Assembly (NCBI RefSeq): GCF_057098645.1
Contig: NZ_CM169472.1
DNA length: 64,000 nt
Direction: 5' to 3' (one strand)
Shown here: positions 43,058 to 43,075 of the stretch, piece after piece
Layout: each line of letters opens with the position of its first letter
How positions within the stretch are numbered: position 1 is the first letter of the stretch
The notes under the pieces: generated by a model
Told to the model about the DNA's origin: nothing
Seen by the model: only the letters and a program-made list of their open reading frames with translations
Database searches by the model: none
Translations under genes and position numbers: made by a program

Positions 43058-43075
43058 TTGCAACCGTCGTGCCAG
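43058..43075 (-). promoter_or_regulatory. Sigma54 (-24/-12) promoter of rtcBA
   Basis: Minus strand reads CTGGCACGACGGTTGCAA, i.e. TGGCAC-N5-TTGCA, a perfect match to the sigma54 consensus, about 40 bp upstream of the rtcB ATG. Confidence 0.8.

Follow-up and report, generated by a model that had tools for sequence, protein, structure and literature searches.

The rtc locus and its sigma-54 promoter

The 64-kb stretch of DNA analyzed here (the window) contains the RNA-repair genes rtcB and rtcA on the minus strand and, in divergent orientation, the gene for their cognate activator, rtcR. The rtcB-rtcR intergenic region measures 188 nt. The features of the locus, with their coordinates in the window, are as follows.

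40762-41790, minus strand: rtcA, RNA 3'-phosphate cyclase, intact and identical to that of E. coli O145:H28 RM13514
41794-43020, minus strand: rtcB, RNA ligase, intact, 408 aa, with the clade-specific substitution D392E (SNP at 41845)
43048-43049, minus strand: predicted rtcBA transcription start (A43049 as -1, C43048 as +1), giving a 28-nt leader to the rtcB ATG
43059-43074, minus strand: sigma-54 (-24/-12) promoter of rtcBA, TGGCACGACGGTTGCA, with GG at 43073-43072 and GC at 43061-43060
43094-43114, minus strand: A/T-rich tract separating the promoter from the upstream region; it contains a pair of overlapping IHF-like sequences, AATTAAAAAATTA and AAACAATGAATTA, each with one mismatch
43209-44807, plus strand: rtcR, a pseudogene through one nonsense codon
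44154, plus strand: second derived change in rtcR, A->T (S316C), later than the amber codon
44301-44303, plus strand: amber codon, CAG->TAG (Gln365 to stop), derived and clade specific

The promoter sequence TGGCACGACGGTTGCA corresponds to TGGCAC-N5-TTGCA, reads from 43074 to 43059 on the minus strand, and is the sole exact match to this motif within the window. The chance expectation is 0.05 exact matches per window, and at least one match was obtained in 4 of 100 shuffles. With one mismatch allowed, there were two matches in the 64-kb window, which is about chance level. The GG and GC doublets are spaced by exactly 10 nt, the spacing of sigma-54 -24/-12 promoters, and the motif, which faces rtcB in the region between the two divergent genes, is separated from the rtcB ATG by 38 nt. 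It also agrees with the extended sigma-54 consensus of Barrios et al., which reportedly reads YTGGCACGrNNNTTGCW. The preliminary description of this DNA, made from the sequence alone, had noted an intact consensus about 40 bp upstream of rtcB and had located it correctly to within 1 nt.

Counting 12 nt downstream from the C of the -12 GC doublet predicts a transcription start that coincides with that of K-12 PrtcBA, for which an ApC dinucleotide primer was used at -1/+1 of the native promoter (PMC9650030). The same article mentions, giving no coordinates, that PrtcBA is preceded by an IHF site and by an upstream activation sequence for RtcR. In the window, the sequences at 43094-43114 are weak candidates for IHF sites, one-mismatch sites being common (71 in the window). 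The search for an RtcR enhancer in the form of an inverted repeat returned, in the region searched, weak A/T-rich repeats but no convincing candidate.

The promoter in E. coli K-12 and Salmonella

The site is the well-characterized sigma-54 promoter of the E. coli rtcBA RNA-repair operon and was thus already known. According to two articles (PMC9650030, PMC5175333), both of which cite Genschik et al. [quoted passage not shown] RtcR is an enhancer-binding protein encoded divergently from rtcBA (PMC9650030, PMC5175333). The founding description of PrtcBA and RtcR, as referenced in PMC5175333, is that of Genschik, Drabikowski & Filipowicz (1998, J Biol Chem 273:25516), and later K-12 studies include those of Engl et al. 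2016 (PMC5175333) and Kotta-Loizou et al. 2022 (PMC9650030). The locus and the divergent layout of rtcR and rtcBA are the same in K-12 and in the window; no differences occur in the -24 and -12 elements or in the spacer, and 3 of the 188 intergenic positions differ. Unlike K-12, the window contains rtcR Q365* and S316C, rtcB D392E, and an AtaRT2-like module between malT and rtcA. Across six diverse E. coli strains, the -24 and -12 elements were invariant, with variation in the spacer and the flanks, and a 61-mer around the promoter was 100% identical in 471 complete genomes.

The rsr-yrlBA-rtcBA operon of Salmonella Typhimurium (STM3521; Samuels et al. 2013, PMC3844500) likewise has an RtcR-dependent sigma-54 promoter. 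This orthologous promoter, TGGCACGCTGGTTGCAAT, was bound by sigma-54 in ChIP-chip experiments (PMC3844500). In comparison with TGGCACGACGGTTGCAAT of the window, it has the same -24/-12 elements and two spacer differences. The content of the operon differs, however, in that rsr and Y RNAs are encoded upstream of rtcBA in Salmonella.

Truncation of RtcR

As the preliminary description had noted, rtcR carries a nonsense codon. It is a single in-frame TAG, past which the frame runs unbroken to the normal stop (533 codons in total). Codons 1-364 encode the CARF domain (RtcR, PF06956, residues 2-185, E = 6e-86; Pfam) and the AAA+ alpha/beta subdomain (Sigma54_activat, PF00158, residues 187-354), in the translation of which GPTGAGKS (Walker A) and GAFTGA are present; Walker B is kept too. 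The stop sits at the border between this subdomain and the lid (Sigma54_activat/AAA_lid_14), and AAA_lid_14 (residues 362-442; Pfam) falls after it. In an alignment to NtrC1 (PDB 1NY6, 4LY6), Q365 was found to belong to the conserved LRxRxEDI segment with which the lid begins, and the GN(F/V)REL sensor II motif was located ~45 residues further on (GNFREL, at about residues 407-412). Lost with the stop are the lid, sensor II, and the C-terminal 90 residues, which include the part said to hold the DNA-binding domain, so that these elements no longer occur in one polypeptide with the remainder of the protein. The rtcR of the window is a pseudogene and not a functional member of the RtcR family.

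AAA+ enhancer-binding proteins such as PspF and NtrC1 need the lid and sensor II for nucleotide binding and hexamer function. Because the stop removes the lid, sensor II, and the C-terminal part, RtcR(1-364) is almost certainly inactive, and it also keeps the CARF domain, which is inhibitory (PMC9650030). From this domain architecture, we infer loss of activator function and, as a consequence, loss of rtcBA induction; the operon should be uninducible and expressed at a basal level only. K-12 deleted for rtcR still expresses RtcB at a basal level (PMC5175333). Low-level readthrough of the rtcR amber codon is possible.

Downstream of the stop, gene callers give a 157-aa ORF with a GTG start (44334-44807). 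It comprises the lid and C-terminal remainder of rtcR in the original frame, a convincing ribosome-binding site was not found for it, and it is most likely not a gene.

Distribution and age of the amber allele

Over its 64 kb, the window aligns collinearly to E. coli O145:H28 RM13514 with 99.93% identity, and the two differ by 19 SNPs and one 23-bp indel. The indel lies in feoB: a 23-bp segment present in the window (24366-24388) is deleted in RM13514, where feoB is annotated as frameshifted, and the feoB of the window is intact. Using O157:H7 as the outgroup, 9 of the 19 SNPs were polarized as derived on the window branch, including all three at the rtc locus, and 8 were assigned to the RM13514 side, leaving 2 without polarity. 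We then compared a 1.9-kb query spanning the promoter and rtcR with the complete O145:H28 genomes. All 26 matched it at the same score with the same two mismatches, namely, those at 44154 (A->T, S316C) and 44301 (C->T, Q365*). The gene of RM13514 is annotated as intact (532 aa), and the matches indicate an intact rtcR in each of the 26 genomes. The 61-mers containing TAG, C316, or rtcB E392 were found in none of 5,426 complete E. coli genomes. These two results (0/5,426 and 26/26 intact) ruled out that the reference lineages of O157:H7 or O145:H28 also have the amber codon.

The exact 364-aa product with C316 was found in a collection of 15 billion proteins, and 14 contigs encoding it were read; for a second 364-aa product with the ancestral S316, 18 contigs were read. 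Full-length RtcR with C316 was absent from this collection. The existence of the truncated S316 product together with the absence of the full-length C316 protein indicates that Q365* preceded S316C. All five contigs fetched via RtcB E392 or the truncated S316 product (L017-L021) carry both TAG and E392. In total, the amber allele was present on about 30 independent contigs that form two sublineages; these originate from NCBI, ENA, and Logan samples (SRR, ERR, and DRR accessions) and are distinguished from one another by private differences. The promoter was unchanged in 9 of 9 fetched clade contigs that span it. This pattern points to a small circulating clade rather than an error, tiny beside the more than 1,000 contigs with an intact O145-type RtcR, and bears out the suggestion in the preliminary description that the rtcR lesion is recent.

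Differences among clade members were also noted in the glp region. Two members have different T->C changes just upstream of glpD, at 46900 (L010) and 46922 (L009), and a third has a 1-bp deletion in glpG at 46364 (L011). They may reflect either parallel evolution of glp regulation or noise in the assembly of the Logan contigs.

Loss of Rtc in other E. coli strains

Rtc is dispensable in E. coli and has been lost repeatedly by deletion, IS1 insertion, or frameshift. In about 580 complete genomes, less than 80% of the 1.9-kb query is covered. Four of these were sampled, one in detail, and all four have a 3' remnant of rtcR fused to a 3' remnant of rtcA, with rtcB, the promoter, and the 5' part of rtcR deleted. 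The strain designated 4/4 is an example of this rtcA'-'rtcR deletion (L014:3598-4384). In strain A30, IS1 is located inside the -24/-12 spacer of PrtcBA, and the -12 element and rtcB have been removed (L006:237-467; window equivalent, 43059-43064). This strain is the converse of the window, its promoter being destroyed and its rtcR annotated as intact. Strain PV15-279 of O157:H7 has an 11-bp deletion that causes a frameshift early in the CARF domain of rtcR (L016:8839-10426; window equivalent, 43399-43409) and that is apparently private to about two complete genomes. It thus represents an independent rtcR pseudogene with a different lesion beside a promoter 61-mer identical to that of the window.

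Retention of the promoter

The branch leading to the window comprises 9 to 11 substitutions per 64 kb (upper bound, 19), or ~1.5e-4 substitutions per site. On such a branch, the number of neutral changes expected is 0.002-0.005 in the 16-nt motif, 0.0015-0.0033 in its 11 specified bases, and 0.03-0.06 in the whole intergenic region. Under neutrality, the probability that the motif is unchanged is at least 0.995. The preliminary description had treated the intactness of the promoter as informative; at this divergence, it is uninformative on selection or use.

It is very probable that the site is the known PrtcBA beside a young, clade-specific rtcR pseudogene, and that the promoter is unchanged merely because the lesion is young, there having been too little time for any change in the 16 bases. 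According to this scenario, the ancestral rtcBA promoter would have been fired by RtcR, encoded divergently 188 bp away, until a single C->T substitution created the amber stop at Gln365 in a small clade close to the O145:H28 strains with sequenced genomes. What is left of RtcR keeps the CARF sensor and the AAA+ alpha/beta subdomain; deprived of lid/sensor II and the C-terminal part, it should neither hydrolyse ATP productively nor bind the enhancer. The rtcBA operon would be left uninducible, at basal level, and no change would be expected in the 16-nt site on a branch of ~1.5e-4, whether or not it were still used. If this is right, isolates of the clade cannot induce RtcBA and would be predicted, from work on K-12 (PMC5175333), to survive tetracycline and tRNA-cleaving toxins less well. 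A known promoter next to an ordinary young pseudogene is nothing new and is of little importance beyond strain annotation. At a within-species divergence of ~1e-4 per site, an intact short regulatory site beside a broken regulator says nothing about function.

Several other explanations were weighed. One is that the loss of Rtc induction is adaptive in this clade of Shiga-toxin-producing E. coli (STEC), so that rtcR inactivation was selected, the promoter was kept incidentally, and the additional changes in rtcB and rtcR reflect selection or released constraint. In its favor, the rtc locus, which makes up 6.3% of the window, holds 3 of the 9 to 11 derived SNPs (nominal P, 0.016-0.028), and all three change the protein: rtcB D392E, rtcR Q365*, and rtcR S316C. 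The statement in the preliminary description that the promoter is under no obvious decay does not fully extend to the locus as a whole: rtcA and rtcB are intact, but the branch also accumulated D392E and S316C. The locus was chosen on account of the amber SNP, and the excess therefore has to be conditioned on it; it is then not significant (P about 0.09-0.13). D392E is, moreover, conservative, and residue 392 aligns to a non-conserved C-terminal position in solved RtcB homologues, which rules out that a conserved RtcB residue was hit. The amber clade has persisted, split into two sublineages, and been sampled in many runs, and Rtc was lost independently in other lineages, but simple dispensability fits recurrent loss equally well and the clade is tiny compared with the contigs that carry an intact O145-type RtcR. 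Adaptive loss or relaxed constraint at the rtc locus is possible, but we regard the reading that the loss of induction is adaptive as improbable. There is an equally small chance that rtcR inactivation was selected near O145:H28, and perhaps repeatedly in STEC (compare PV15-279), with the three-mutation cluster as the footprint of selection. Were this so, the benefit might come from RNA repair that cannot be induced or from sequestration of RtcA/RtcB or of damaged-tRNA signals by a CARF-only fragment of RtcR.

The preliminary description had also proposed that the truncated RtcR or another activator drives the promoter, for which we found no support and which retention does not require. Purifying selection would explain an intact promoter if the latter were still used, either by another sigma-54 activator acting from solution or by an RtcR-independent route. 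The Salmonella rtcBA promoter can indeed be activated by DctD250, an engineered activator devoid of a DNA-binding domain (16-fold in a reporter and 71-fold in arrays; PMC3844500), some stimuli raise Salmonella rtcBA expression independently of RtcR (PMC9650030), and residual RtcB is present in K-12 lacking rtcR (PMC5175333). Such cross-activation is known, however, only for an overexpressed, constitutively active artificial protein, and induction in E. coli was RtcR-dependent in the cases tested, namely, VapC and the ahpC deletion (PMC9650030, PMC5175333). A simple scan of the rtcB-rtcR intergenic region, insensitive in that it misses rtcR's own promoter, detected no sigma-70-like promoter. 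Given that at this divergence retention requires no selection, continued use of the promoter is very unlikely as its cause. That RtcR(1-364) itself still activates from solution, via its Walker A, Walker B, and GAFTGA motifs, is extremely unlikely. The alpha/beta subdomain with GAFTGA is retained and activators devoid of a DNA-binding domain can work from solution (PMC3844500), but the entire lid with sensor II is also missing, the inhibitory CARF domain is kept, and the later missense change S316C accumulated in the same gene. Finally, the stop codon might be a sequencing or assembly error in a gene that is truly intact, as would suit a single-base change absent from every complete genome. 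The same allele was, however, recovered on at least 10 contigs that were fetched independently and stem from different projects and archives, with private differences and nested sublineages, and this recurrence in many independent assemblies in effect rules out an error.

Toxin-antitoxin modules in the window

Between malT and rtcA, the window contains a type II toxin-antitoxin pair that is not part of Rtc.

39958-40712, plus strand: AtaR2/AtaT2-like type II toxin-antitoxin pair
39958-40236, plus strand: TacA1/DUF1778 antitoxin (PF08681, E = 1e-19)
40227-40712, plus strand: GNAT toxin, with weak Pfam matches and a full-length match to PDB 7f37 (354 bits over 161 aa)

The two genes overlap by 10 nt and have the order of DUF1778/TacA-GNAT modules. 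O157:H7 genomes have a module in the same place, and its DNA and that of the window are 99.7% identical. The toxin of the AtaR2-AtaT2 pair of O157:H7 Sakai (ECs4261-ECs4262) modifies Gly-tRNAGly by acetylation of its glycyl moiety (Ovchinnikov et al. 2020, PMC7470980). AtaR2 was reported to be free of glycine (PMC7470980), and the antitoxin of the window likewise contains none. From the DNA identity to the O157:H7 locus, the toxin of the window is inferred to be an AtaT2-like Gly-tRNAGly acetyltransferase. The module is accessory, occurring in 394 of the 5,426 genomes and being absent from strain 4/4.

The preliminary description had drawn attention to an acquired tRNA-targeting toxin within 3 kb of the promoter. 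The distance, 2.3 kb, was confirmed, but the proximity is incidental, because both the O145:H28 reference genomes and O157:H7 strains such as AR-0427 combine the same module with an intact rtcR and because an AtaT2-like toxin would be an acetyltransferase and not a nuclease. AtaT2 acetylates and therefore generates no cleaved RNA on which RtcA or RtcB could act, and on this mechanistic ground we rejected a functional connection of AtaT2 with Rtc.

A further module is present at about 27570-28210, between rpnA and bioH, where a MazE/AbrB-like antitoxin (with the substitution M13I, 27632) is encoded together with a toxin of the PemK/MazF family. O145:H28 has this pair, and O157:H7 PV15-279 lacks it. 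The PemK/MazF module would be more relevant to Rtc than the GNAT toxin, because MazF-type nucleases leave 2',3'-cyclic-phosphate and 5'-OH ends, which RtcB ligates.
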